Source: Escherichia coli
GTDB lineage: Bacteria > Pseudomonadota > Gammaproteobacteria > Enterobacterales > Enterobacteriaceae
DNA: 64,000 nucleotides
Strand: one strand, 5' to 3'
Assembly: GCF_013122565.1 (NCBI RefSeq)
Contig: NZ_CP053258.1
Shown: positions 32,595-47,703 of the stretch, piece by piece
How positions within the stretch are numbered: the stretch's first letter is position 1
Layout: every line of letters begins with the position of its first letter
Translations under genes and position numbers: made by a program
The notes under the pieces: generated by a model
Seen by the model: the letters and a program-made list of their open reading frames with translations, nothing else
Told to the model about the DNA's origin: nothing
Database searches by the model: none

Positions 32595-33380
32595 TTAGGA
32601 ATTAAATGTCCAGCTACCCGTATCGGTCACAATGTCAGCTTCAATGATACGGTCACACTTCATATATTTGAACGTAGCCACATCACCGAATTTATATTTT
32701 GCTGGCAGGGTTCTGTTACCGACGCTCTCCATTTTACAGTTCCCTCTGTTTACCCGAATGGATTTCAGCACCACGTTGTCATCAGTGATAGTGAGCTGAA
32801 TAACACCATATCTGGTATTCCAGCCTTCATTGCTGACGGAGCTGCCGAACTGAACTTTAAATGGTGGTGTCGTAGATTGCTGTACCTGCTGTTGTTGAGA
32901 GGGAGCAGGTTTATTAGCCTGCTGGCTACCAACGCTATTAATGCCATTCTGAAGGAGGCTCCTGGAAACCTTAATGGTACCCGGCTTGCATGATACTGTG
33001 CTGGTTTCCTGCCCCATTGCATTCATGACAGTGTAATAAGCATCACCTGTACCATCATATTCTGAGTAATTGACTGCAACCGCGCCTTCGATATCTTCAT
33101 TTTCTCCACGTAATGTGAAAGAAGCAGTTCCTGCTCCCGGATTAGCCGCCAGAGTCTGTTTCGCTTCGCCGGAAGGAATATCCAGTTTGATAACGGAACC
33201 ACCTTCTTCGGAGTCACCACCTGGCGTTTCAAAACTGATATAAACGGTATTACTGACGTGGCTGAGTGTCATTTGCTCACCGTTATCAAGCAGACATTGC
33301 AGGTCATAGGCCCCGACAGCATAAGCAGGGTGGAATGCAAATAAAGATACAAACAATACAGGTATAATGATTGGTTTCAT
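32595..33380 (-). CDS. Secreted protein of unknown function (261 aa): signal peptide, two Cys-pair domains, Q-rich linker
   Basis: N-terminal MKPIIIPVLFVSLFAFHPAYA signal peptide; 12 nt downstream of GTPase gene stop. Confidence 0.5.
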   Translation of the reverse strand: MKPIIIPVLFVSLFAFHPAYAVGAYDLQCLLDNGEQMTLSHVSNTVYISFETPGGDSEEGGSVIKLDIPSGEAKQTLAANPGAGTASFTLRGENEDIEGAVAVNYSEYDGTGDAYYTVMNAMGQETSTVSCKPGTIKVSRSLLQNGINSVGSQQANKPAPSQQQQVQQSTTPPFKVQFGSSVSNEGWNTRYGVIQLTITDDNVVLKSIRVNRGNCKMESVGNRTLPAKYKFGDVATFKYMKCDRIIEADIVTDTGSWTFNS

Positions 33381-33392
33381 TAAGCACTTTCC

Positions 33393-34406
33393 CTATCCAA
33401 AAAAATGGTCCCAGGCATTACCAGCCCACTCGATAAGTTTGTCTTTCCCCTTACGGGTAAGCTCTTTGACAGGCTTTGGTAACGGAAAAGAATCAATAAC
33501 GTCGTCGAGTATCCCGGAGATTACGCTGCCAAAGCCGTTTTTTGCTTCCGTCTTTACTTCGTCGGTTTTGAACTCATCCTTAACCTGCGAAGCCGTGCTA
33601 CTTTTAGCCCGATCAGGCAAAGCCCGAATAATAGTCTCTACCAGACGAAGAATGTTGTAGCCCTCATCGGCGGAGACAGGTGTCACCGGATAGTGCGTAA
33701 AACCAAATCGTTCAGTAATGTAGGCTTCTTTCTTTTCGATGTTGATGCGCTGTGCAGGAGATGGCTGATGCAGATGAGTATCCCACTCGCGGAATGGCTC
33801 AATTTTATCAACCTGGTTAAGGACGAATAAAACGCGCTCACCCCCACCAGCAGGGAGCAGAACATTGTTGTAGAAATGCTCATCCGCAGAAAAGGCCCGA
33901 TCGTCTCCTTTTATTACCCACAGGATAAGATCCAGGGAGGGAAGCAAATTGCGGTATAAATCTTCATACTCCTTATCCCGCCGGGCATTCTCACCGACAC
34001 CAGGTATATCAATGATCTTTAGCGAATGTTTGCCGAAGCGTATACGCAATTCCTGAACTTCGCGAGTACATGCCTCAACGTCGCTAACTGCACAAACCTC
34101 CCCTTTAAACAGCGCATTACATACGCTGCTTTTCCCCGCGCCTGTTTTTCCCATGACACCAATCACGGGTTCATAGTCGATGGCTTCACTGATTTTGTTC
34201 AACAGCTTTTCCCGCAGTGGCTGAGGGAAAATATCAAGAATATCCCTGATGTCGGGTATGTGCGGTTTGCTATCACCTTTTTGCTCGTTGCTACCATTAC
34301 GTTCTGGAAATATATTGCCCCACATTCCAAAAATCCCGCCTTCCCTTCTGGTGACGCCACTGGCATCAGTAATCATCCGGCCTTCGCCCTTTACCGGGTC
34401 ATCCAT
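33393..34406 (-). CDS. YfjP/YeeP-family GTPase
   Basis: P-loop GKTGAGKSS, DIPG, NQVD motifs (G1/G3/G4). Confidence 0.75.
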   Translation of the reverse strand: MDDPVKGEGRMITDASGVTRREGGIFGMWGNIFPERNGSNEQKGDSKPHIPDIRDILDIFPQPLREKLLNKISEAIDYEPVIGVMGKTGAGKSSVCNALFKGEVCAVSDVEACTREVQELRIRFGKHSLKIIDIPGVGENARRDKEYEDLYRNLLPSLDLILWVIKGDDRAFSADEHFYNNVLLPAGGGERVLFVLNQVDKIEPFREWDTHLHQPSPAQRINIEKKEAYITERFGFTHYPVTPVSADEGYNILRLVETIIRALPDRAKSSTASQVKDEFKTDEVKTEAKNGFGSVISGILDDVIDSFPLPKPVKELTRKGKDKLIEWAGNAWDHFFG

Positions 34407-34445
34407 ACGAGGTCTCCTTTTTTAATTTGAAATAAACGTTGTCTG

Positions 34446-35216
34446 TTACTCTCTGAAGGTCTGAATTACGTCACTTATGAAACGAAAGTGAGGGAGGGCT
34501 GAAATGAACTCTTCACTGGCAGTCAGAGCGTCAAGTTCAGGCTTTCTGCGAAAAGAAGTATCCAGAACAGTTACAGCGTTAACGTCTTCCATCCGAAACA
34601 CCTGTAAATTTCTGGTGCGGGTAGCAACAAGAAACCAGTTTTTGGACTGAAATATCAGACGGCGGGGAGCTACTGCTTCGTAGCTTTTACCGTTAACTAA
34701 TAATGTAACGGCGCGGTAGTCGCGGATAGCTTCCGCCAGTTCCAGAAAACAGGCAGTCTGCGTGACGGGAGAAGATAATGCCCCATGCCCAATAAGACAC
34801 GGCGATACGCCGGAATTGCTGGCAATCAACCGGATCAACTTGCGGTTCTGAGCCGGAATGATTCCTGAAATTCCTGAATTACGTATAAACGCAAATGTAT
34901 TGGGTGAGTGCTCCCGGCCTGTTTGGCGGATAAGTCGGTAACTTCCGCTGCGATGCTCAAGATCCAGATGGATCAGGCGTTGCTGAAAATCCCGCTGTAG
35001 GGTGCGTTCTGAGACACCAAATTCATCAGCTAATGCTTTAAGCTCCAGAGATTCGCCAGCCAGTAAGCGGCTGATAATGACCGATAGCCTGACAGACAGG
35101 CGGTCATAATGATCATGCTGTGTTTTCATAGTGGGGACAGTCCTGTTCTCCCAAAATATCATGGTATTGATACAGGAGATTATGCCGTACAGGTACGACA
35201 CGTTATGTCGTACCAA
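34446..35216 (-). CDS. HTH plus WYL-like domain transcriptional regulator (YfjR-like); true start probably internal ATG at 35162 or 35129
   Basis: HTH-like segment (LADEFGVSERTLQRDF); C-terminal WFLVA-type WYL-like segment; ORF track start is TTG at 35216 and overlaps an operator-like palindrome. Confidence 0.55.
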   Translation of the reverse strand: MVRHNVSYLYGIISCINTMIFWENRTVPTMKTQHDHYDRLSVRLSVIISRLLAGESLELKALADEFGVSERTLQRDFQQRLIHLDLEHRSGSYRLIRQTGREHSPNTFAFIRNSGISGIIPAQNRKLIRLIASNSGVSPCLIGHGALSSPVTQTACFLELAEAIRDYRAVTLLVNGKSYEAVAPRRLIFQSKNWFLVATRTRNLQVFRMEDVNAVTVLDTSFRRKPELDALTASEEFISALPHFRFISDVIQTFRE

Positions 35217-35339: not shown

Positions 35340-35706
35340 GTGTTAGCCGGGAAAGGATATCTGTTACTTACTAAAATGATTTAGTGCTGAAAATATTTAT
35401 AAGCTAATAAATAGACAGGTATTACGGAGTAACGCCCAGGCTATGTTAACGAGCCCGCTGTTTTATTGGCTCAAAAAACATATCCCATAGATGTTCAGCC
35501 ATACCCTCGTTAGTGAGCAAGGTATCCCTTGAGTAGCCAGGGCTGAAGACGCCCATTGATGGGCGAAAACCAAGGATCTGGCCGTTAGAACAGTTATGTC
35601 GTTAAACACATCACCACCATATGCCATCCGGCTCACTTCGTCGGCCAAATTAGTGTGATATTCTTTCCAGAAATGCTGTTGTATCCACGACATAAGGCGA
35701 TGATTG

Positions 35707-38700
35707 ATGGAGCAGTCTCTCAATTTTGAAATGTTGCGCAGCCAGTGGCCGGAACTGGCTGAACTCGCGTGCATGGCGGAACACTATGTTCACTCCGATC
35801 CGGAAAGCTGTCTGGTCAAGCTGCGCAACTACACCGAATTGATGGTGCGCTGGTTGTATCGTCAGGAGCGGTTGCCGGAAGGTATTAAGGCTAATCTTTA
35901 CGATTTAATGAATGCTGATGTCTTTACCAGCATGATGCCGGAAGCCATCATCATGAAAATGGATGCGCTGCGTATCCATGGCAACCGTGCCGCGCACGGC
36001 GGACGTATCAAAGCTAAAGATACTTACTGGCTGCTCAAAGAAGCGTATTTGTTGGGAATTTGGCTGTATGTTCGCTACGCCCACGGTAATGTTGATGACT
36101 GCCCCAAATTTACACTCCCTCCATTAACACCATCTTCAGGTCGTGCAGATGAAAAACGTCTGGAAGATGCAATCAAGGCTCAGGATGAAAGCCGTGAGCG
36201 CGAACTGGCGCTACAACGCGCACTACAGCAAGAACAGGAAAAGGCCGAACACCTCACTCAACGCCTGAATGAAGCCAGAGCGCGTAACCAGCATGTTGCC
36301 GATATTCTCTCTATTGATGAAGCGGAAACCCGCCGTCGCCTGATTGACTCTCGCCTGCTTGCTGCTGACTGGAATGTAGGCGAAGAACTTAATAATACCG
36401 ATCAGGTCACGCAGGAACACCCCGTTAAAGAACAACCTACTGCAACCGGTGACGGTTATGCAGACTATGTCTTGTGGGATGAGGCACACAAACCGCTGGC
36501 GGTGGTGGAAGCCAAAAAAACTAGTGTCAATGCCGAGCAAGGACGAATTCAGGCCCGGCTGTATGCAGACTGGCTGGAAAAAGAATACGGTCAGCGTCCG
36601 GTCATCTTCTACACCAACGGCTATGATATCTGGCTGTGGGATGACCATAAAACTCATGGTTATCCCCCGCGTCGGGTGTTTGGCTTCTACAGCAAGGAAA
36701 GCCTGCAATATCTTATTCAGCAGCGTGAAACCCGTCTGCCGCTGAACAGAGTGCCACACGTAAAAGATAACGAAGGTAAGGCCGTTGCCGGACGTTTGTA
36801 CCAGCTCGAAACCATTGCCCGCGTCAGTGAACGGTTTACCAACAAGTACCGACAATCGTTAATTGTTCAGGCTACGGGTACAGGCAAAACCCGCGTGGCA
36901 ATTGCACTAAGCAAACTGATGATTGATGCCCGCTGGGTAAAACGCGTCCTGTTTCTTTGCGACCGTAAAGAGCTGCGTAAACAGGCGGCAAATGCCTTTA
37001 ATCAATTCACCAATGAGCCGCTGTATGTGGTCGGGAAATCGAAGAAAGCAGACAGGCAGAACGCCAGGATCTACATCGCTACCTATCCCGGTATGATGAA
37101 AATCATGGACCATTTCGATGTCGGATATTTCGATCTGATTATCGCCGATGAATCCCATCGCTCTATCTACAACGTTTACGGCGATCTGTTTAAGTATTTT
37201 GATGCCCTCCAGATTGGCCTGACGGCCACGCCGATCGACATGGTGAGTAAAACGACTTTCGGCCTGTTTGGTTGTGAAGGACGTATCCCTACCGCCAACT
37301 ACAGTCTGGAAGATGCCATCGCCGATAACAATCTGGTTCCCTATGAGGTTGTCACGCACACCACAGAATTCCTGCGCGAAGGCATCAAACGGGAGAAATT
37401 AAGCGACACACAAATCCGCGAGCTGGAAGAACAAGGCATAGATCCCAATACGCTGGAGTTTGATGGCAAGGCGCTGGATGAGGCGATCTACAACAAAGAC
37501 ACCAACCGCTATATCCTGCGTAACCTGATGGAAAATGGCCTGAAAGATCGGGACGGCCAGTTGCCAGGTAAAACCATCATTTTCGCCCGTAACCACAAAC
37601 ACGCGCTGCTGTTGAATGAATTGTTCGACGATATGTACCCGCAGTTTGCCGGGCGCTTCTGCCAGGTCATCGACAATTACGATCCCCGCGCCGAGCAACT
37701 GATTGATGATTTTAAAGGGCTGGATGAAAGCACTAACAAAGAGCTAACCATCGCTATCTCCGTTGACATGCTCGATACCGGTATTGATGTCCCGGAGATT
37801 GTGAATCTGGTCTTTGCCAAACCGGTCAAATCAAAAGTGAAATTCTGGCAGATGATTGGCCGTGGTACGCGCCTCTGTCCGGGGTTGTACGGTTACGACG
37901 ATAACGGCAAACCTCTGGATAAACAGAAATTCCGCATTTTCGATCACTGGGGCAATTTTGAGTATCACGAACTGCATACCGAAGAGGCCGAAGTCACAGC
38001 GACAAAATCGCTTGCACAAAAACGCTTCGAAGCGTGGGTTATGCTGGGGGCCGCTGCGCAACGTAAATTCGACAAACAGGCGGTGGATTTAGTTGCTCAC
38101 CAGCTTCGCGAGCAAATCAACGCACTGGATGAAAAGTCGATTGCCGTACAGGAAAAGTGGCAGCAAAAAGCGCAGTACAGTGATGAAAAGGTGCTGCGCC
38201 AGCTTTCTCCGAAAACACAGCAGGATCTGCTATCTGTTCTGGCCCCGCTGATGCAGTGGCTGGACGTGCGCGGGCAAAGCGATGCCATACGCTTTGATAT
38301 GGATATTCTGGCGGCGCAAACTGCCCGTTATACCAACCCGGAAGAGCTGGATGTGCTCTGGCCGGCCATCGTCGAAAAAGTGGAGCGCCTGCCGCCGCAT
38401 TTGGCGCAGGTGCAGCAACAGGGACAGCGGATCAATCAGCTTCGTGATTTAAGCTGGTGGAAGCAGGCCAGCCTGGAAGAGCTGGAGGATATTCGCATTC
38501 ATTTGCGCGGTATCATGCACCTGATGGAAAAAGACGCGACGCCTAAATTTGGTTCGATACAGGTGGATATTACCGAAGATGCGAACCTGATCCAGACGGA
38601 GACCCGCAAAACTAATATCCGCTCGATTGATTTCAAACTCTATCGCCAGCAGGTTCAGGGGGCGCTGGAGCCGCTGTTCCAGCAAAACCCGGTTCTGAAG

Positions 38701-39120
38701 AAAATCCGCAACGGCGAGCCAGTCACGCAAAACGAGCTTGATGAACTGGCGAAGCTGGTGCTGATCCAGAACCCCAACGTTGATATCCGGGCACTGAAAG
38801 AGTTCTATCCGCAGGCAACCGCCAGCCTGGATAAACTTTTGCGTACCATCATCGGGATGGACAGCGACGCGGTGGAAGTGCGCTTTGCTCAGTTCGCCGC
38901 TGATAACAGTCTAACCAGCCAACAACTGCGCTTCCTGTCATTGCTGAAAAACCACATTCGCGATTACGGCACCATTGAAATGCGGCAGCTCTTTGAACAG
39001 CCTTTTACGCATATCCACAACGAAGGCGTTACCGGTGTGTTCCCTGATATAGAGCAGATCGCCCGCCTGCAAAAGATAGTCGAAGAGCTGGGTGTTGTGA
39101 CCGACGCAGCGACGGTATAA
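35707..39120 (+). CDS. hsdR: Type I restriction enzyme R subunit
   Basis: DEAD-like helicase motifs (GTGKT, DESHR), size about 1137 aa; immediately upstream of hsdM/hsdS; ATG 35707 preceded by AAGG. Confidence 0.85.
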   Translation: MEQSLNFEMLRSQWPELAELACMAEHYVHSDPESCLVKLRNYTELMVRWLYRQERLPEGIKANLYDLMNADVFTSMMPEAIIMKMDALRIHGNRAAHGGRIKAKDTYWLLKEAYLLGIWLYVRYAHGNVDDCPKFTLPPLTPSSGRADEKRLEDAIKAQDESRERELALQRALQQEQEKAEHLTQRLNEARARNQHVADILSIDEAETRRRLIDSRLLAADWNVGEELNNTDQVTQEHPVKEQPTATGDGYADYVLWDEAHKPLAVVEAKKTSVNAEQGRIQARLYADWLEKEYGQRPVIFYTNGYDIWLWDDHKTHGYPPRRVFGFYSKESLQYLIQQRETRLPLNRVPHVKDNEGKAVAGRLYQLETIARVSERFTNKYRQSLIVQATGTGKTRVAIALSKLMIDARWVKRVLFLCDRKELRKQAANAFNQFTNEPLYVVGKSKKADRQNARIYIATYPGMMKIMDHFDVGYFDLIIADESHRSIYNVYGDLFKYFDALQIGLTATPIDMVSKTTFGLFGCEGRIPTANYSLEDAIADNNLVPYEVVTHTTEFLREGIKREKLSDTQIRELEEQGIDPNTLEFDGKALDEAIYNKDTNRYILRNLMENGLKDRDGQLPGKTIIFARNHKHALLLNELFDDMYPQFAGRFCQVIDNYDPRAEQLIDDFKGLDESTNKELTIAISVDMLDTGIDVPEIVNLVFAKPVKSKVKFWQMIGRGTRLCPGLYGYDDNGKPLDKQKFRIFDHWGNFEYHELHTEEAEVTATKSLAQKRFEAWVMLGAAAQRKFDKQAVDLVAHQLREQINALDEKSIAVQEKWQQKAQYSDEKVLRQLSPKTQQDLLSVLAPLMQWLDVRGQSDAIRFDMDILAAQTARYTNPEELDVLWPAIVEKVERLPPHLAQVQQQGQRINQLRDLSWWKQASLEELEDIRIHLRGIMHLMEKDATPKFGSIQVDITEDANLIQTETRKTNIRSIDFKLYRQQVQGALEPLFQQNPVLKKIRNGEPVTQNELDELAKLVLIQNPNVDIRALKEFYPQATASLDKLLRTIIGMDSDAVEVRFAQFAADNSLTSQQLRFLSLLKNHIRDYGTIEMRQLFEQPFTHIHNEGVTGVFPDIEQIARLQKIVEELGVVTDAATV

Positions 39121-39183
39121 TACACGCATGACAAGCCCCGGCAGCGGGGCTTTTGTATTTAAAACAGGATATAAACGCTAACA

Positions 39184-40818
39184 ATGATCACTGGTGACTT
39201 AAAAAGTAAAATCGACGGACTATGGGAAGATTTCTGGGTGGGTGGTATCACCAACCCGCTGACTGTAATCGAACAGATCACCTATCTAATGTATTCCCGG
39301 ATGCTGGATACCCAGGAACAACGTGACGAGAAGCGTAAACAAATCGCGGGTATTGATTTTAAACCGCGTTTTACGCCAGAACAGCAGGAGTTCCGTTTCA
39401 GTCACTATAGCAATCTTGGCTCGGATGAGATGATGGAAGTGGTGCGCGATGGCGTATTCCAGCATTTTCGTCAGCTCGGCCTGGCTGATGCATCAAAGGT
39501 GACACTGCTGGGCAACTTTATGAAAGATGCTCGTCTAGAGATTGTTAAGCCGTCATTGCTGACCAAAGCGGTTGAGGTGATCAAAAACCTGCCGCTCGAT
39601 CGCGGCGATACCAAAGGCGATCTCTACGAGTACCTGTTGAGCAAGCTAACTACCGCCGGGATCAACGGTCAGTTCCGCACGCCACGCCACATTATCCGCA
39701 CGATGGTTGAAATGATGGAGCCGAATCCCGCCCGCGGCGAGACGATTTGCGATCCAGCCTGTGGCACCGGTGGTTTTCTGGCAACCAGCTATGAATATCT
39801 GCTGGAGAAGTACAGCTCGCTGGAATCCATCCATACTGAGATTGGCACCAACGAACGTGGCGAGCTGGAAGAGCAAAAAATCTTTACCGGCGATCTGCTG
39901 ACGCCATGGCGTAACCATGTGGATAACAATATGTTCCACGGTTACGACTTTGATACCACCATGCTGCGTATCGCCGCCATGAACCTGATTATGCACGGCG
40001 TGGAAGCGCCTGATATCCACTATCAGGACACCATGAGCCAGAGCTTCAGCACAAACTTCCCGCAGGCCAGTAAAAACGCTTTCAACCTGATTCTGGCAAA
40101 CCCGCCGTTTACCGGTTCACTGGACGAGGAAGATATCGACTCCACGCTGTCGGCAATGGTGAAAACAAAAAAAACCGAACTGCTGTTCCTGGCGCGAATT
40201 CTGCAAATGCTGAAAGTGGGCGGGCGAAGTGCCACTATCGTGCCGCAGGGCGTGCTGTTTGGCTCCAGTAAGGCGCACCAGTCACTTCGCAAAACGTTGG
40301 TGGAAGATAACCAATTGGAAGCGGTGATCAACCTGCCTTCCGGCGTATTTAAACCTTACGCTGGCGTGGCGACGGCGATCCTGATCTTTACCAAAGGCGG
40401 TCAAACGGATGAGGTCTGGTTCTACGATCTACAAAATGACGGCTACAGCCTGGATGATAAGCGCAACCCGATAAAAGACAACGATCTGCCGCATCTGCTG
40501 GCAAGCTGGAAGCATTACCGTACTTTACGCGGGCTACCGGTTGATAACTTTATGGGTGAGAAGTTAGCCTCATTGCTGAAACAGCAGTACCCGGAAGGGA
40601 TTGATGCTGGCGTTGATTTTAAAGATCGCACGCAGGCGGCATTTGTGGTGCCGAAAGAAGATATTGCTGCGCAGAAATACGATCTCTCTATCAATCGTTA
40701 TAAAGAGGTGGTGTATCAGGCGGAGGAATATGAAGATCCGAAGGTGATACTGAAACGATTAAAAGATCTGGAAAAAGAGATTCTGGCGGATCTGGATGAG
40801 CTGGAGGGGATGCTGTGA
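39184..40818 (+). CDS. hsdM: Type I R-M N6-adenine DNA methyltransferase M subunit
   Basis: N-terminal HsdM-like region, AdoMet motif ([10 protein letters not shown]) and NPPF catalytic motif. Confidence 0.9.
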
Positions 40819-41990
40819 GCAGGAAAGAATATTCCTTTATTGAAGTATGTGATATCCAAGGAGGAACTCAGCCTCCAAAGGACGAGTTTGTTTATGAAAA
40901 AAAAGATGGATATATAAGGCTTTTACAAATCCAAGATTTTAAAAGAGAGGATAAAACTGTTTATATTAAGGATAGGCATACTCTGAAAAAATGTAATGAC
41001 GATGATATTCTAATAGGTAGATATGGAGCATCTATTGGAAAAATTCTCTCTGGGTTATCAGGAGCATATAACGTTGCTTTGGTTAAAGCCATCCCTGATT
41101 TAAAAAAAATAAACAAGAGATTTTTATGGCATTTTTTAAACAGTGTAGTATTTCAAGAATTTATAAAAAATGTTTCTACTCGAGCCGCTCAAGCTGGGTT
41201 TAATAAGGATGACTTAGCAAAGCTAAAAATATATTTACCATCTTTAAATGAGCAAGTGAAAATTGCTTCTGTTCTTGATTTATCTGATGCCATACGCAAA
41301 AAACGAGAACAAACTATCAAACTGGCTGATGATTTTTTGCGTGCTACGTTTTTGGAGATGTTTGGTGATCCTGTTGAAAACCCTAAAGGATGGAAAAAGG
41401 ATAAAATAAAAAAAGGTGTGTTAGGCATTGCTTCAGGATGGAGTGCCACTGGAGAAAATATACCCTGTAAATCTGATGAATTTGGCGTGTTGAAAATCAG
41501 CTCGGTGACTTCTGGAGTATTCAAACCAGAAGAAAATAAAGTGGTAGCCTGTGAATCCATTCCCGCTTCAAAAAAACTTATTCACCCTAAAAAGGGAGAT
41601 TTGCTATTTAGTCGCGCAAATACCAGAGAGTTAGTTGCTGCGATATGCATGGTTCATCAGGATTATGACAACCTTTTCCTTCCTGATAAACTATGGTCTA
41701 TTAAGTTAAATCATAAGCTATTGCTACCAGAGTTCTTTCTCATCTTAATACAAAATGAAAAAGTCCGTGAGTTACTAACAAAACAAGCGACCGGAACAAG
41801 TGGGTCGATGCTAAATATATCTAAAAATAAATTTGAAGAAACTGAAATTATCTTCCCAGAGATCAATGTTCAAAAAGATTTTTGCAATACTTTCAGAAAA
41901 ACAATAAATTTGAAAACAAAGTTAATAAAAAGTAATGAATTAGCTAATGAGTCATTTAATTCATTATCTCAAAAGGTATTTCAGCAATGA
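40815..41990 (+). CDS. hsdS: Type I R-M specificity subunit
   Basis: 391 aa with two target-recognition-domain halves; GTG start overlapping hsdM stop (GTGA) with GGAGGGGA RBS; AT-rich. Confidence 0.8.
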   Translation: MSRKEYSFIEVCDIQGGTQPPKDEFVYEKKDGYIRLLQIQDFKREDKTVYIKDRHTLKKCNDDDILIGRYGASIGKILSGLSGAYNVALVKAIPDLKKINKRFLWHFLNSVVFQEFIKNVSTRAAQAGFNKDDLAKLKIYLPSLNEQVKIASVLDLSDAIRKKREQTIKLADDFLRATFLEMFGDPVENPKGWKKDKIKKGVLGIASGWSATGENIPCKSDEFGVLKISSVTSGVFKPEENKVVACESIPASKKLIHPKKGDLLFSRANTRELVAAICMVHQDYDNLFLPDKLWSIKLNHKLLLPEFFLILIQNEKVRELLTKQATGTSGSMLNISKNKFEETEIIFPEINVQKDFCNTFRKTINLKTKLIKSNELANESFNSLSQKVFQQ

Positions 41991-43678
41991 AAATTGTTTA
42001 TACACCTGATCGATCCTGGAGAGAAATCCCACCAGCAAAACCAGAACTTGGTGATGTTTTATCTCTGAGCAGTAATAATTGGGATGACTATGGATATAAA
42101 ACTACTCTAAACGCAAAAATATACATTAAGAATCAATCTATTTCATTTGATTTTTCAATTAAATTATTAATTGAAAATATCGATAACACGGCAATAAAGC
42201 TAGATGAATTATGTAAAGATGGATGGGATGGAATATTCCCCATCCCTAATACTAACTATATAGCTCTTCCATCTGATATTGATTTTTATCAAATACTCAT
42301 ATCTAAAATAGGTGAGGAATCAACAGTCAATCTTCTGAATGATCTGAACGATGCAGGTTTCAATAAAAATGTTTACCATAATGAAATATCTAACAGACTC
42401 ATAGAACAAGATGCCTTTAAAACGTCATTACTCCGAGAAAGTGGAGCAAATAAAGCCTATCTAGACGGTTATCTGATATTCCAAAATATTCACGCAGAAA
42501 TAAGAAACTTTCAGTTAAATATTTTAACGAAAAAAGGAGGTGTAAATAAGATACCATTTAAATTTGAATCTAATTTATTGCCTTATGATATTAATGTTAT
42601 TATTGGCCCGAATGGGATTGGTAAATCTCATTGCCTGAAATCACTTGTTGAATATTGGTTGCAAATAGGAATGGGGGAACAACGATTACTTGAAAAGAAT
42701 AAGCATACTCCATTTGATGAACGACCTAACATAAGTAAGCTTGTTCTTGTTTCTTATAGCCCTTTTGAAGAGTTCAGCCTAGATCTAGAAAAAGACAATT
42801 TACAAGATAAAAAGGCATATCAATATTTTGGTTTCAGGCAAATGAGAGATAATGGGACAATTGGTATCAGTCGAAACTTACCAGCTTTAAATTCAAGTGA
42901 GTCATTACTTGAAATGATATCTGATGATAAGAAATACCAATTCATTGAAAATCGAATAAATAAGCTCAACTCTGTCGATTCTGCACTCAAATCTGCTATT
43001 AGCTATGATTATTGTGTTCTAAGATTATCTCCAGAAGATAACTCATCTTATCTCGGGAAAGATATTGTCATAATTGATGGCGAAAAATATCTCCCTGCAG
43101 TAAATATTGTAAAATGGGCTGATCATTTAGATTTAATAAGGGATTCTATACTACTCAATGATGGTGTAATCTTTGTTAAAGATGGGGAAATTGTAAATCT
43201 TAGTTCTGGCCAACGATTATTTGTATATATAGCTATTAATGTTGTCGGTGCAATGAAAGAAAATAGCTTAATTGTGATTGATGAACCTGAATTATTTTTA
43301 CATCCTAACCTTGAAATAGAATTCATTGGGCTACTAAAAAAATTACTTAAATCATTTCGCTCTAAAGCTATTCTAGCTACTCATTCCCTATCTATCACAC
43401 GTGAAGTACCGTCAAAATGTGTACATATATTCCGCTACAAGGATGACGAATTTGAAATAGTCCCCCCGCCATTTGAAACATTTGGCGGTAATGTTCAGAG
43501 AATTTCTTCTTATGTTTTCGGCGATAAATCGATCTCTAAGCCTTTTGATGAATGGCTTGAGATGCAGCTTCAAGCTATTAAAGATCCTGAAAAATTAATT
43601 GAAATGCTAAATGAAGAAATTAATGAAGAAATAATCATGAAAATCATGAGTTTAGGGAAAAAGTATCATGGTCACTAA
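41987..43678 (+). CDS. ABC/AAA-type ATPase (563 aa) with an about 200 aa N-terminal domain of unknown function; Septu PtuA-like
   Basis: Walker A GPNGIGKSH near residue 208; Walker B-like VIDEPELFLHP; ATGA overlap with hsdS stop. Confidence 0.55.
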   Translation: MKIVYTPDRSWREIPPAKPELGDVLSLSSNNWDDYGYKTTLNAKIYIKNQSISFDFSIKLLIENIDNTAIKLDELCKDGWDGIFPIPNTNYIALPSDIDFYQILISKIGEESTVNLLNDLNDAGFNKNVYHNEISNRLIEQDAFKTSLLRESGANKAYLDGYLIFQNIHAEIRNFQLNILTKKGGVNKIPFKFESNLLPYDINVIIGPNGIGKSHCLKSLVEYWLQIGMGEQRLLEKNKHTPFDERPNISKLVLVSYSPFEEFSLDLEKDNLQDKKAYQYFGFRQMRDNGTIGISRNLPALNSSESLLEMISDDKKYQFIENRINKLNSVDSALKSAISYDYCVLRLSPEDNSSYLGKDIVIIDGEKYLPAVNIVKWADHLDLIRDSILLNDGVIFVKDGEIVNLSSGQRLFVYIAINVVGAMKENSLIVIDEPELFLHPNLEIEFIGLLKKLLKSFRSKAILATHSLSITREVPSKCVHIFRYKDDEFEIVPPPFETFGGNVQRISSYVFGDKSISKPFDEWLEMQLQAIKDPEKLIEMLNEEINEEIIMKIMSLGKKYHGH

Positions 43679-44594
43679 GTTACAACTTCCCGAATATGAC
43701 TCTATTAAGGTACTCCGAACCATCATTTCAGAAAGAGAGAGATATAAAGATTTCTATGATAGCTTATCGAATGATTGGATAGCACATGTAGAAAGCTATT
43801 TGGAACATCATGGTGATCCACGCTTTATTACACCTCTCGACCTCTCTCTGTATATTTCAGAAGAATTAGTACAAAATGAAGAAGAGAAAACAACTGATGC
43901 CAATAGGCATATATCGGCGCAAGAAAGACTGACGCAAAAAAGGAAACAAACTCTAATTAATTTATACTCTCCTGCTGAGGGGAAAACTCCCTACGATATT
44001 CTTGATACTTTAAGACGAGGACATGGCCTGTTATTTTGCCCATGTTGTGGGGAACCAGGAAAGCCGACAACGTTAGACCATTATTTGCCTAAAACTATCT
44101 ATCCTGAATTAGCTATAATTATTGCTAACTTAACGCCGATGTGTAATGAATGTCAGCAGAATAAAAGTTCTGATTATTTTGATGAGGATGGTAACAAAAT
44201 TTACATACATCCTTATTTTGATCCTATTGAACAAGTTAATTTAATCATTGATATAGAAGAACCCTATGCTACTCCAACATTCAGGCTAAACATTACTGAG
44301 GATGGTGATGATAATGAGATTTATGAATTGCTAAGGCGACATATAAATGGTGTTAAATTTTTAGAGCGATTCGATGAGTTTTGTCGAAATGAATATATGG
44401 CATTATTGCGCACAATGTCATTAGAACGTCAAGATGCTCAACCGGATAGAGCGTCAAGAATAATTTGTCGATTCAAACGCCAATATGAGGGTCAGTCTCC
44501 AAATAGATGGGAGGCTATTTTCTATAGAGGGATATTGAATAATGCCGACCTACTTAATTATCTAGATCATGGAAACTTGCCTGATTTTACATAA
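43668..44594 (+). CDS. HNH nuclease-domain protein (308 aa); Septu PtuB-like
   Basis: HNH motif CPCCG...LDHYLPK...NLTPMCNECQQNK; start overlaps ATPase gene by 11 nt with AGGGAAAAAG RBS. Confidence 0.55.
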   Translation: MVTKLQLPEYDSIKVLRTIISERERYKDFYDSLSNDWIAHVESYLEHHGDPRFITPLDLSLYISEELVQNEEEKTTDANRHISAQERLTQKRKQTLINLYSPAEGKTPYDILDTLRRGHGLLFCPCCGEPGKPTTLDHYLPKTIYPELAIIIANLTPMCNECQQNKSSDYFDEDGNKIYIHPYFDPIEQVNLIIDIEEPYATPTFRLNITEDGDDNEIYELLRRHINGVKFLERFDEFCRNEYMALLRTMSLERQDAQPDRASRIICRFKRQYEGQSPNRWEAIFYRGILNNADLLNYLDHGNLPDFT

Positions 44595-44842: not shown

Positions 44843-45847
44843 TTAATAATAATTATAGTATAACCGTTTAATTGCCTTGTTTAATATAGTTTCATACTCA
44901 TTTTCTGACATATTCAACCAAGCAGTTATACTTTTTAATCCACTAGACTGATAATCTATAAACTCGCGCATTTTATTATAATCAATACTTACCTGCGTGT
45001 TTGTATCAGCTATAACTTTAGGTTCCCCATTACACCACCCTAAAATAAGAAAACTACTCATTGTGCTTGACATGTCACAAAAGAAAAAAAGATCGGGTAT
45101 TATTTTACCTAATTGCTTTGCATAACTGACTACCTCAGGTATTTCAAGCAACTCTCTGGGGTCATCATCATACCCCCCAAATAATATTTCAACCTTACCC
45201 TGTTGACTATAAGCAAATTCCTTTGTCACTTTTAGTCTTTTAAAAATGCTAATGACAAAACCAAAATCAAATCTTAAAACATCTTCTTTAGGAATAATTA
45301 GGCGAGTGATATCTATATTCTCATTAAATATTTTGTTTACACACCAAAACATTTCAAACTCAGAGTAATAATCAACTTCTTCAGGAAGAAGTGCCAATAT
45401 CTCATCTCTACTATCAATCAATTGACGTTTTGGAATATTAATCTTCCATGATTTTTTTGTTCTTTCAATTTTGATAGGATCAAAATATTCCCAAAACACT
45501 TCTTTTTTTTCAGGATTGCAAAGCAAAATCAAAACAGGTATTGGGCAGTTGGATAAATAATTAAAGTGCTTATTTTCACCTCTGTAAACATATCCCCACC
45601 GATTTTCTTCCGAAAAAAATGAAGCTCCACATTTGATTTGTACAGCAAGCATTTTCCCCGTTACGGCTCCATCTTCTCGTACTATTTCGATATAACCATC
45701 GATACCGAAATCCATTTCTTGATGGTTTATCTTAAAAATCCATCCAAGATTTTCATTAATTACTGATTTTACTATATTTACTCCAAGCTCACCTAATTGA
45801 GCTTCTTTTTGGTATTTTGGGAATTTATCTATCATAAAAAACCTCAA
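44843..45847 (-). CDS. Uncharacterised protein (334 aa) with possible restriction-endonuclease-like (PD-(D/E)xK, DUF4365-like) N-terminal domain
   Basis: Putative D...E.K-like motif (DFGIDGYIEIV...AVQIKCG); AT-rich gene flanked by AT-rich spacers next to integrase. Confidence 0.4.
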   Translation of the reverse strand: MRFFMIDKFPKYQKEAQLGELGVNIVKSVINENLGWIFKINHQEMDFGIDGYIEIVREDGAVTGKMLAVQIKCGASFFSEENRWGYVYRGENKHFNYLSNCPIPVLILLCNPEKKEVFWEYFDPIKIERTKKSWKINIPKRQLIDSRDEILALLPEEVDYYSEFEMFWCVNKIFNENIDITRLIIPKEDVLRFDFGFVISIFKRLKVTKEFAYSQQGKVEILFGGYDDDPRELLEIPEVVSYAKQLGKIIPDLFFFCDMSSTMSSFLILGWCNGEPKVIADTNTQVSIDYNKMREFIDYQSSGLKSITAWLNMSENEYETILNKAIKRLYYNYY

Positions 45848-46150: not shown

Positions 46151-47419
46151 TCACTCGCCATTACCCCGATTGATCTTCGCATAGTCAAACGGCGTAATCG
46201 CTCTCTCCCGATTGGCATCCAGAAAATCAGCCCACCACTGCAACATCAGCTTGCGTTCATCCAGGTGTTCCGCTTTATGGATATACGCCGCCCTCACTGA
46301 ATTGCGTTCCATATGGCTCATCTGCCTTTCCACCGCATCCTTCGACCATAGTCCTGACTCAATTAGCGAACTACAGGCCATTGTGCGGAAACCGTGACCA
46401 CAAACTTCAACCTTAGTGTCATAGCCCATCACCCGTAGCGCACTGTTTACGGTGTTCTCGCTCATGGGCTTACGCGGATCGTGATCGCCAATAAAAATCA
46501 GCTCATGCTCACCACAGAACTGCTTTATCTGCTTCAGGATCGCCAACGCCTGCTTTGAAAGTGGCACCAGATGCGGTGTACGCATCTTTGATCCTCGCTG
46601 AGAATGTTTAACATCAGGAATGGGTTCACGTTCCGGTGGAATCGTCCACATCGACGTGTCGAAATCTATCTCCGACCAGCGGGCAAAACGTAGCTCGCTG
46701 GATCGAATAAAGATAAGCAGGGTAAGTTCGGTTGCCCAACGGGTTAATCGCCTTCCAGTATAGCTGTCTATTTTCTGAAGCAGTTCTGGAATACGCTTTA
46801 ACTCCAGAGCCGGGCGATGCTGTCGCTTGCCAGAAGCAACGGCTCCCGCCATCTCTTGAGCCGGGTTATAATCAATCAGTCCACTTTGCACAGCATAACG
46901 CATGATAGCCGTGGTACGTTGTTGGAGACGGGAAGCCACCTCAAGACGTCCAGATATCTCTACGGCTTTAATGGGAAGTAACAAATCACGGGTACTCAAT
47001 TCAGCAATATTACGTGTCCCAATCGCCGGAAAGACATTATCCTCCAGACTCTTTTTTACACGATTAGCATGATCTTCCGACCATTTTTGGTTGGTCACGA
47101 GCCACTCTCTGGCAACCTTCTCGAAAGTAATAATCTCTTTCGCCTGCTCTTCTTTCACAACACGCTTATGTTCGCGTGGATCGATACCAGCAGCTACCAG
47201 CTTTCTGGCCTCCTCCCTTTTCTTCCTGGCATCTGCCAGTGAAATTTCGGGGTAAACACCAAACGCCATCACATGCTGCTTGCCACCAAAACGAAAACGA
47301 AATCGCCAATATTTGGAGCCATTAGCATGTACCAGTAAAAACAGGCCATCACCATCAGATAGCGGGTTTGCATTATCTTCAGATTTTGCCGAACGGACTT
47401 TAGTATCAGTCAGAGCCAT
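46151..47419 (-). CDS. intB: P4-type tyrosine integrase
   Basis: 422 aa; typical P4 integrase N-terminus (MALTDTKVRSAK) and C-terminal catalytic region (HGFRT, Y); directly downstream of leuX 3' end. Confidence 0.9.
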   Translation of the reverse strand: MALTDTKVRSAKSEDNANPLSDGDGLFLLVHANGSKYWRFRFRFGGKQHVMAFGVYPEISLADARKKREEARKLVAAGIDPREHKRVVKEEQAKEIITFEKVAREWLVTNQKWSEDHANRVKKSLEDNVFPAIGTRNIAELSTRDLLLPIKAVEISGRLEVASRLQQRTTAIMRYAVQSGLIDYNPAQEMAGAVASGKRQHRPALELKRIPELLQKIDSYTGRRLTRWATELTLLIFIRSSELRFARWSEIDFDTSMWTIPPEREPIPDVKHSQRGSKMRTPHLVPLSKQALAILKQIKQFCGEHELIFIGDHDPRKPMSENTVNSALRVMGYDTKVEVCGHGFRTMACSSLIESGLWSKDAVERQMSHMERNSVRAAYIHKAEHLDERKLMLQWWADFLDANRERAITPFDYAKINRGNGE

Positions 47420-47618: not shown

Positions 47619-47703
47619 TGGTGCCGAAGGCCGGACTCGAACCGGCACGTATTTCTACGGTTGATTTTGAATCAACTGCGTCTACCGATTTCGCCACTTC
47701 GGC
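47619..47703 (-). tRNA. leuX: tRNA-Leu (CAA)
   Basis: Reverse complement reads GCCGAAGTGGCGAAATCGGTAGACGCAGTTGATTCAAAATCAACCGTAGAAATACGTGCCGGTTCGAGTCCGGCCTTCGGCACCA (85 nt, CAA anticodon, CCA end). Confidence 0.95.

Follow-up and report, generated by a model that had tools for sequence, protein, structure and literature searches.

An intact PDC-M01 cassette, encoding a PtuA-like ATPase and a PtuB-like HNH protein, behind hsdS of a type I restriction-modification system in Escherichia coli

A 64,000-nucleotide stretch of Escherichia coli DNA (referred to as the window; contig NZ_CP053258.1 of RefSeq assembly GCF_013122565.1) contains a two-gene cassette, encoding an ABC-type ATPase and an HNH protein, directly behind hsdS of a type I restriction-modification (R-M) system. 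Five co-directional genes (hsdR, hsdM, hsdS, ATPase and HNH) were resolved in the open reading frame (ORF) map (Table 1), and the R-M system is complete, with HsdR, HsdM and HsdS each matching PADLOC type I models end to end. As claimed in a first-pass annotation of the window, the genes from hsdM onwards are chained by overlapping starts and stops: GTGA at the hsdM/hsdS junction (40815-40818), ATGA at the hsdS/ATPase junction (41987-41990) and an 11-nucleotide overlap between the ATPase and HNH genes (43668-43678), and all of these coordinates held. The 11-nucleotide overlap was also found in Vibrio, Amphritea, Aeromonas, Pectobacterium and Yersinia, and the hsdS-ATPase junction is kept across Enterobacterales, with an AAGG about 10 nucleotides 5' of the ATPase ATG. 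The marked AT-richness ascribed to hsdS and the two extra genes was equally evident, with G+C contents of 0.32-0.36 (0.333, 0.321 and 0.360 for hsdS, ATPase and HNH, respectively) against about 0.51 in hsdR (0.512) and hsdM (0.506). The AT-rich block begins at hsdS and extends through the convergent gene at 44843-45847 (G+C 0.31), and the ATPase-HNH cassette was more AT-rich than its flanks in all hosts checked.

Table 1. Genes and other features of the R-M/ATPase/HNH locus and its surroundings (window coordinates)
Feature	Position	Strand	Basis or remarks
261-aa protein	32595-33380	-	no match
GTPase	33393-34406	-	weakly similar to dynamin-like LeoBC/LeoA models, E 9e-12
WYL-domain protein	34446-35216	-	
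hsdR	35704-39120	+	1137-1138 aa; PADLOC REase_I PDLC03047, E 3e-274, full length
Terminator-like G+C hairpin (AAGCCCCGGCAGCGGGGCTT) and T-run	39133-39152	+	consensus scan; putative function
hsdM	39184-40818	+	544 aa; PADLOC MTase_I PDLC03021, E 2.5e-192, full length
hsdS	40815-41990	+	391 aa; PADLOC Specificity_I PDLC03119, E 6e-140, residues 1-391 of 393-position model
PtuA-like ATPase (PDC-M01A)	41987-43678	+	563 aa
ATPase N-terminal domain	41987-42496 (aa 1-170)	+	five-stranded sheet region, one helix, then six-helix bundle
HNH nuclease (PDC-M01B)	43668-44594	+	308 aa
DUF4365/DUF1817 protein	44843-45847, likely start ATG 45835	-	RefSeq product name; PADLOC Aga_REase-PNTD, E 5e-23
Tyrosine integrase of island	46151-47419	-	RefSeq annotation of 99.4% identical genome; ORF list
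tRNA-Leu(CAA), leuX, island integration site	47619-47703	-	ARAGORN; RefSeq annotation

The terminator-like hairpin lies 13 nucleotides past the hsdR stop and 32 nucleotides before the hsdM ATG, and is identical at the five loci compared (from E. coli, Pectobacterium and Yersinia), among which the flanking bases differ. From hsdM to the end of the HNH gene, the consensus scan found no terminator-like sites. Because of this conserved hairpin between hsdR and hsdM, the pair is more aptly treated as belonging to an hsdM-hsdS-ATPase-HNH unit. The likeliest arrangement, judging from the DNA, is that these four genes form a single unit of the kind seen in classical type I systems (the 'mod' operon), hsdR standing partly apart; hsdR may have its own transcript. 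The earlier proposal of one transcription unit with hsdR just upstream is thus likely for the overlapping genes from hsdM to HNH, and hsdR may be set apart by the hairpin. A perfect TATAAT (39116-39121) overlaps the hsdR stop codon, and together with the hairpin it may separate or attenuate the expression of hsdR relative to that of hsdMS-ATPase-HNH.

Both proteins of the pair were matched over their full length by models of a single PADLOC candidate system. The ATPase aligned to PDLC04238 (PDC-M01A) with E 4.6e-239 (residues 1-559 on positions 1-562 of 564), and the HNH protein, among the best 25 PADLOC matches listed for it, to PDLC04270 (PDC-M01B) with E 1.4e-107 (residues 1-307 on positions 1-279 of 280). 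By these matches the pair is an intact instance of PDC-M01, which is already catalogued, with the same architecture and A-then-B gene order and no architectural difference. PDC-M01 is a 'phage defence candidate' proposed on the basis of genes found within type I R-M, BREX and DISARM loci, and the most abundant multi-gene candidate of the PADLOC-DB v2 'embedded' set, its cassettes CAS_00019 and CAS_00079 having 964 and 245 RefSeq occurrences, respectively (Payne et al. 2024, bioRxiv 10.1101/2024.01.29.577857). The accessible part of that preprint describes neither the N-terminal domain, nor the relationship to PtuA, nor the rate of R-M contiguity of the family. PADLOC labelled some loci both Septu and PDC-M01 in one genome survey. 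PDC-M01 is thus a catalogued yet uncharacterised candidate family with a putative anti-phage role, and the present system is already listed under that name, R-M embedding being the very basis of the entry. What had been suggested to be an uncharacterised R-M-linked abortive infection module is accordingly still a candidate, as supposed; it is, however, listed as PDC-M01, and dependence on R-M was not supported, the coupling being a minority trait (see below).

The ATPase contains a Walker A motif (GPNGIGKS, residues 207-214), a signature motif (LSSGQ, 405-409) and a Walker B motif (LIVIDEPE, 428-435), all invariant across 59 sequences, as well as H466. Pfam matches were to AAA_21 (residues 202-470), AAA_15 and SMC_N, by which the 'ABC/AAA-type' label given earlier is narrowed to ABC-type, to the exclusion of AAA+. 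Searches of the PDB with the single ATPase sequence returned marginal matches only; a profile of the 59 sequences matched Retron-Ec78/Eco7 PtuA (1.7e-15), AriA (1.4e-9) and E. coli Septu PtuA (3e-8), with weak Rad50 P-loop matches in addition. An AlphaFold model of the ATPase was confident (predicted local distance difference test score, pLDDT, 93.4; predicted template modelling score 0.89), and when it was compared with the PDB by Foldseek, ranks 1-50 were all PtuA chains, from Retron-Eco7/Ec78/Ec83 and E. coli Septu (E 5.6e-11 to 1e-6). In the model, the chain ends in three helices (519-561) that appear to mirror the PtuB-binding C-terminal domain of PtuA (PMC12673091).

For the HNH protein, single-sequence searches of the PDB gave nothing meaningful, and the Pfam HNH match at residues 124-168 was weak (E 1.2e-3), though correctly placed. 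The upstream start codon of its gene is taken to be real because M1 and V2 are invariant in 35 homologues. Further invariant residues are C124, C127, D137-H138, N154, C159, C162, K166 and H181, and the spacing of the predicted zinc-finger HNH core, C-x2-C-x10-H-x20-C, equals that of Retron-Eco7 PtuB (C43, C46, H57 and C78; PMC12673091).

On the evidence of sequence and predicted structure, the pair is best regarded as divergent Septu-like and not as a canonical member of Septu. As in Septu, it is a two-gene operon with the ATPase gene followed by the HNH gene, and the ATPase is of the ABC type with Walker A, signature and Walker B motifs, as is PtuA, solved PtuA being the closest match to its predicted fold. 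The profile match to PtuA, the fifty leading Foldseek matches and the PtuB-like Cys/His spacing thereby bear out the 'divergent Septu' that the first-pass annotation had offered as one possibility. The pair was checked for a clean match to canonical PtuA/PtuB over the full length and free of any additional domain, and none was found. PADLOC PtuA models (best E 7e-48) covered mainly residues 402-548, for the most part only the C-terminal half. Canonical Septu was also rejected by curated models: the ATPase scored 45.6 bits against a cut-off of 500 for NCBIfam NF041760 (PtuA), an equivalog model built for the PtuA of retron Ec78, and 51 against 300 for TIGR04435 ('restriction system-associated AAA ATPase'). 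The canonical layout is departed from in the 170-residue N-terminal domain, which is absent from Septu I and Retron-Eco7 PtuA: the Walker A lysine is K213 here and K43 in Septu I (PMC13096335), while in Retron-Eco7 PtuA the motif stands at 93-100, after an N-terminal domain of 63 residues (PMC12673091). The HNH protein, in turn, exceeds the 216-aa Retron-Eco7 PtuB by about 90 residues, with its predicted catalytic histidine at H138 rather than at H57 (about 80 residues further in than in Retron-Eco7 PtuB) or H75 (PMC13096335, PMC12673091), so that each of the two proteins is extended at its N-terminus compared with canonical Septu.

The position of Walker A about 200 residues into the ATPase, remarked on in the first-pass annotation, proved to be general: a representative search for the family yielded 158 clusters at E<=1e-30, and the motif lies at approximately 205-225 in nearly all of the 50%-identity cluster representatives. 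Since this position is kept, the N-terminal domain can be considered a hallmark of the family. In five representatives (P0167, P0216, P0220, P0227 and P0263), Walker A is found at 300-350, with 90-150 extra residues before the conserved N-terminal domain. Modelled alone, the domain reached a pLDDT of 95.9, with strands at 2-6, 24-29, 40-47, 56-62 and 91-95, a helix at 68-77 and a six-helix bundle at 99-166; its invariant residues are D34, D122 and R150, with W32 and Y101 close to invariant. The domain had been left without an assignment in the first-pass annotation; no Pfam family and no relative among solved structures was found for it. In AFDB50, 246 entries had the fold at E<=0.001, and most of the matches listed were N-termini of similar ATPases. 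The fold also occurs in shorter, non-ATPase proteins of the AlphaFold Database (A0A7Z0QMW4, A0A0Q0AD58, A0AAF0HED9 and A0AA42CSQ0), which matched with template modelling (TM) scores of 0.68-0.75 over about 170 residues; they include a 216-aa E. coli protein and a stand-alone protein of 169 aa, and some are annotated as 'abortive infection family protein' or 'phage-related protein'. These matches hint that the domain is a portable module, and because some of the non-ATPase entries are named as abortive infection proteins it may serve as a sensor in other abortive-infection effectors. By analogy with Retron-Eco7 PtuA, in which a much smaller N-terminal domain binds the regulator composed of reverse transcriptase and multicopy single-stranded DNA (PMC12673091), a sensor or regulatory role is proposed for it here. 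The domain is the most original piece of the system and a candidate phage-sensing module.

Whether R-M linkage belongs to the family was addressed in a co-occurrence survey of 80 loci with one genome per species, the loci being the best 80 of the first 600 pattern hits and therefore not a random sample. They came from Proteobacteria, Bacteroidota, Firmicutes, Actinobacteria, Spirochaetes, Chloroflexi and others. The PDC-M01B gene directly followed the ATPase gene in 79 of the 80 (gap -44 to +25 nucleotides), the exception being a 518-bp contig, and A-then-B pairing is thus essentially obligate. Thirteen of the 79 pairs were contiguous, on the same strand, with a gene for a type I or fused methyltransferase-restriction endonuclease; seven had a Hsd-like gene within 10 kb that was not contiguous, and 59 had none within 10 kb, as judged by iteratively built Hsd profiles that divergent Hsd families may escape. 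The contiguous pairs lay between hsdS and hsdR (L029, L037, L063 and L093), after hsdS (L032 and L058), after hsdR (L042, L052, L056 and L065), after a fused enzyme (L038 and L071) or directly upstream of an hsdS fragment (L085). In the two loci with fused enzymes, from Sulfitobacter/Celeribacter (L038, 1002-7486; L071, 5049-11464), the start of the ATPase gene overlaps by 4 nucleotides the end of the gene for a single-chain protein of 1640 aa that matches both HsdM and HsdR profiles (type ISP-like), which indicates that fused R-M enzymes, and not only classical three-subunit ones, have captured the cassette.

R-M operons have thus acquired the cassette repeatedly and clearly not by chance, yet such capture is a minority state with variable geometry. 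R-M linkage as a trait of the family was rejected on the basis of the survey, and the tight coupling to hsdS that had seemed a feature of the pair turned out to be confined to one enterobacterial island lineage and a minority of other loci. Relatives with 52-58% identity and no R-M genes nearby were found in Vibrio (in an island with AbiJ, TIR and STAND-like genes and an integrase), Amphritea (in a Tn7-like element), Proteus (at a prophage end) and Aeromonas (as a solo insert), and members of the family also occur on 52 plasmids. A phage-borne origin was considered and is not supported, as a tblastn search of 50,697 phage records gave no match at 1e-10, prophage-end copies in Proteus notwithstanding.

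These distributions bear directly on the possibility that the cassette is a dedicated guard of the R-M system, held inactive by HsdM/HsdS or HsdR in the manner of PrrC and firing when Ocr, ArdA or a Stp-like factor disables R-M, with the N-terminal domain as the sensor of R-M or of anti-restriction. PrrC/EcoprrI is the classic second-line system physically linked to R-M, and both it and PARIS, which is triggered by Ocr, employ ABC ATPases, so that such a guard has precedents. Among 79 unrelated loci, 13 show same-orientation contiguity with type I or type ISP-like genes (in four, the cassette lies between hsdS and hsdR), a proportion far above a rough prior of <1% for a random 20-kb window (a figure that was inferred, not computed). 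Several of the R-M-contiguous loci have start/stop overlaps, and conservation of the hsdS-ATPase junction across Enterobacterales agrees with a guard as well. Against it stand the 59 pairs with no Hsd gene in the neighbourhood, the R-M-free relatives in Vibrio, Amphritea, Proteus and Aeromonas, and the variable point of attachment (after hsdS, after hsdR, between the two or after a fused enzyme), which would be a poor fit to a single protein partner; moreover, many autonomous systems are occasionally embedded, according to Payne et al. (2024, 10.1101/2024.01.29.577857). A guard is for these reasons considered unlikely. The related proposal, that the N-terminal domain is a sensor by which the R-M-linked copies alone watch over the type I enzyme for anti-restriction proteins, making the pair a two-component counterpart of PrrC/EcoprrI, is likewise regarded as improbable.

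Since 59 of 79 pairs are without a Hsd gene within 10 kb, the cassette is most likely autonomous, and its minority association with R-M, in variable geometry, favours an autonomous cassette that gains from co-transfer and co-expression with R-M over a dedicated R-M guard. We therefore regard it as probable, with fair though not full confidence, that the locus contains an autonomous two-gene PDC-M01 cassette, with a PtuA-like ATPase and a PtuB-like HNH nuclease, that rides the hsdMS operon as a defence system. On this reading, a lineage of enterobacterial integrative islands acquired the cassette immediately downstream of hsdS in a full set of type I R-M genes; the cassette would share a transcript with hsdM and hsdS, to which it would probably also be coupled in translation, and the two systems would travel together as layered defences beside an integrase.

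Complex formation, trigger, substrate and defence phenotype are proposed by analogy with Septu and Retron-Eco7 PtuAB. In both, the ATPase activity of PtuA and the HNH activity of PtuB are needed, and PtuA forms nucleotide-stabilised head-to-head dimers that hold PtuB; tRNA-Tyr is cleaved during infection by E. coli Septu EcB88 and by Retron-Eco7, and DNA degradation has been reported for another Septu (PMC13096335, PMC12673091). The ATPase described here may similarly assemble into nucleotide-dependent head-to-head dimers or higher oligomers, which would hold the nuclease in an inactive state through the C-terminal helices. The N-terminal domain would probably sense phage infection, upon which the HNH nuclease would be released or activated, and cleavage of phage DNA or host tRNA could halt phage production through growth arrest or nucleic-acid destruction.

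Several observations weigh against this interpretation. The Foldseek matches to PtuA had identities of 11-16% and TM scores of 0.3-0.5, and a profile of the 35 HNH homologues, compared with the PDB, retrieved no solved PtuB at E<=1. The insert between Walker A and Walker B is, at 219 residues, shorter than in E. coli Septu (273) and Retron-Eco7 (about 296), and the oligomer may for this reason differ from that of Septu. With respect to co-transcription, a promoter scan of this AT-rich DNA gave 37 promoter-like matches compared with 28.8 +/- 5.2 in shuffled sequence, which is no clear excess. No experimental tests of PDC-M01 were found in the literature searched, where its main-text mentions were in two genome surveys only, and it was not among the PDC candidates tested in the experimental paper that was found.

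A function in addiction, in which the two genes act mainly as a toxin-antitoxin-like pair for the stable maintenance of the island or of the R-M genes, and not as a phage sensor, would be in keeping with the toxicity of PtuAB to E. coli when the retron partner is missing (PMC12673091), with the Pfam name of the ATPase domain family ('putative AbiEii toxin') and with the constant location of the cassette on mobile elements. It appears very unlikely, as an antitoxin-like third gene is missing, relatives in Septu show no toxicity until infection (PMC13096335) and solo chromosomal inserts, as in Aeromonas, have nothing to stabilise. Least probable of all, and close to dismissible, is a housekeeping or DNA-repair role of the ABC ATPase and HNH protein, with co-location with R-M by chance. 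ATPase-nuclease pairs such as SbcCD/Rad50-Mre11 do act in repair, and the weak Rad50 P-loop matches noted above could be read in that light; however, the pair has a patchy distribution, being present in only 64 of 5426 complete E. coli genomes (and chromosomal every time), it forms AT-rich cargo beside integrases, transposons, prophage ends and other defence genes, and its best structural and profile matches are to defence ATPases (PtuA, AriA and retron OLD) and not to repair enzymes.

PrrC, PARIS and OLD/Gabija identities were ruled out by partner and domain architecture. PrrC/EcoprrI resembles the present locus in that a type I R-M operon contains, internally or at its end, both an ABC-type ATPase module and a nuclease effector, but PrrC unites ATPase and anticodon nuclease in one polypeptide, whereas here there are two genes and an HNH effector, and no PrrC model was among the best PADLOC matches. 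In addition, the embedding of PrrC in R-M is near-exclusive according to Payne et al. (2024, 10.1101/2024.01.29.577857), whereas 75% of PDC-M01 family loci were without R-M. PARIS has a related ATPase (partial PADLOC matches to AriA models at E 1e-13, and the PDB match to AriA given above) and likewise places a nuclease under the control of an ATPase scaffold; it differs in that the partner, AriB, is a TOPRIM/DUF4435 protein instead of an HNH protein, and in that AriA is without the N-terminal domain found here.

An intact E. coli copy, set in its native operon alongside all the subunit genes of a type I R-M system, makes the locus a convenient model for PDC-M01, in which it could be asked whether the cassette defends, whether its HNH protein cuts DNA or tRNA like other PtuB proteins, and whether the linkage to R-M goes beyond co-mobility. 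Current concepts would be unchanged unless the guard hypothesis were true.

The R-M/ATPase/HNH block stands at the end of an island integrated at leuX (Table 1). The same five genes (hsdR-hsdM-hsdS-ATPase-HNH) were found in enterotoxigenic E. coli (ETEC) H10407 and in sequence type 131 (ST131), at about 87-91% DNA identity and beside an integrase remnant, as well as at tRNA-Sec (selC) in strain ET734 and in Pectobacterium and Yersinia (ATPase identity 73-84%), so that the attachment sites of the block include leuX, selC and others. In H10407 (L002, 15260-20407) and ST131 (L003, 15287-20434), the R-M/PDC-M01 block adjoins tia and leoABC, the latter encoding dynamin-like proteins related to the Eleos defence system, and these regions, named 'virulence islands', are consequently also defence islands.

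Between the HNH gene and the integrase of the window lies the gene for the DUF4365/DUF1817 protein, whose N-terminus resembles the restriction-endonuclease-like domain of proteins associated with prokaryotic Argonautes (E value in Table 1) and PDC-M02A (1.5e-6). It is probably another defence gene. The gene is split in H10407 and ST131, replaced by one for a 5'-nucleotidase in ET734, and absent in Yersinia and Pectobacterium; because the content of the slot differs in this way, the neighbour is considered variable cargo outside the cassette.

From its sequence, HsdR is related to the EcoAI/EcoEI (type IB) family: its score against NCBIfam restrict_EcoAI (231 bits) was below the cut-off of 550, and its Pectobacterium orthologue has HSDR_N, ResIII and EcoEI_R_C domains. 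Residues 5-212 of HsdR (start at 35716, end at 36339) matched the first 208 positions of PADLOC PDC-M16A with E 2.4e-40, a similarity by which an N-terminal module (the DUF4145/HSDR_N region) is common to HsdR and this embedded candidate. On the other side of hsdR, and divergent from it, three co-directional genes on the minus strand (32595-35216) encode the WYL-domain protein, the GTPase and the 261-aa protein of Table 1, a trio that may constitute another candidate defence or regulatory module of the island.

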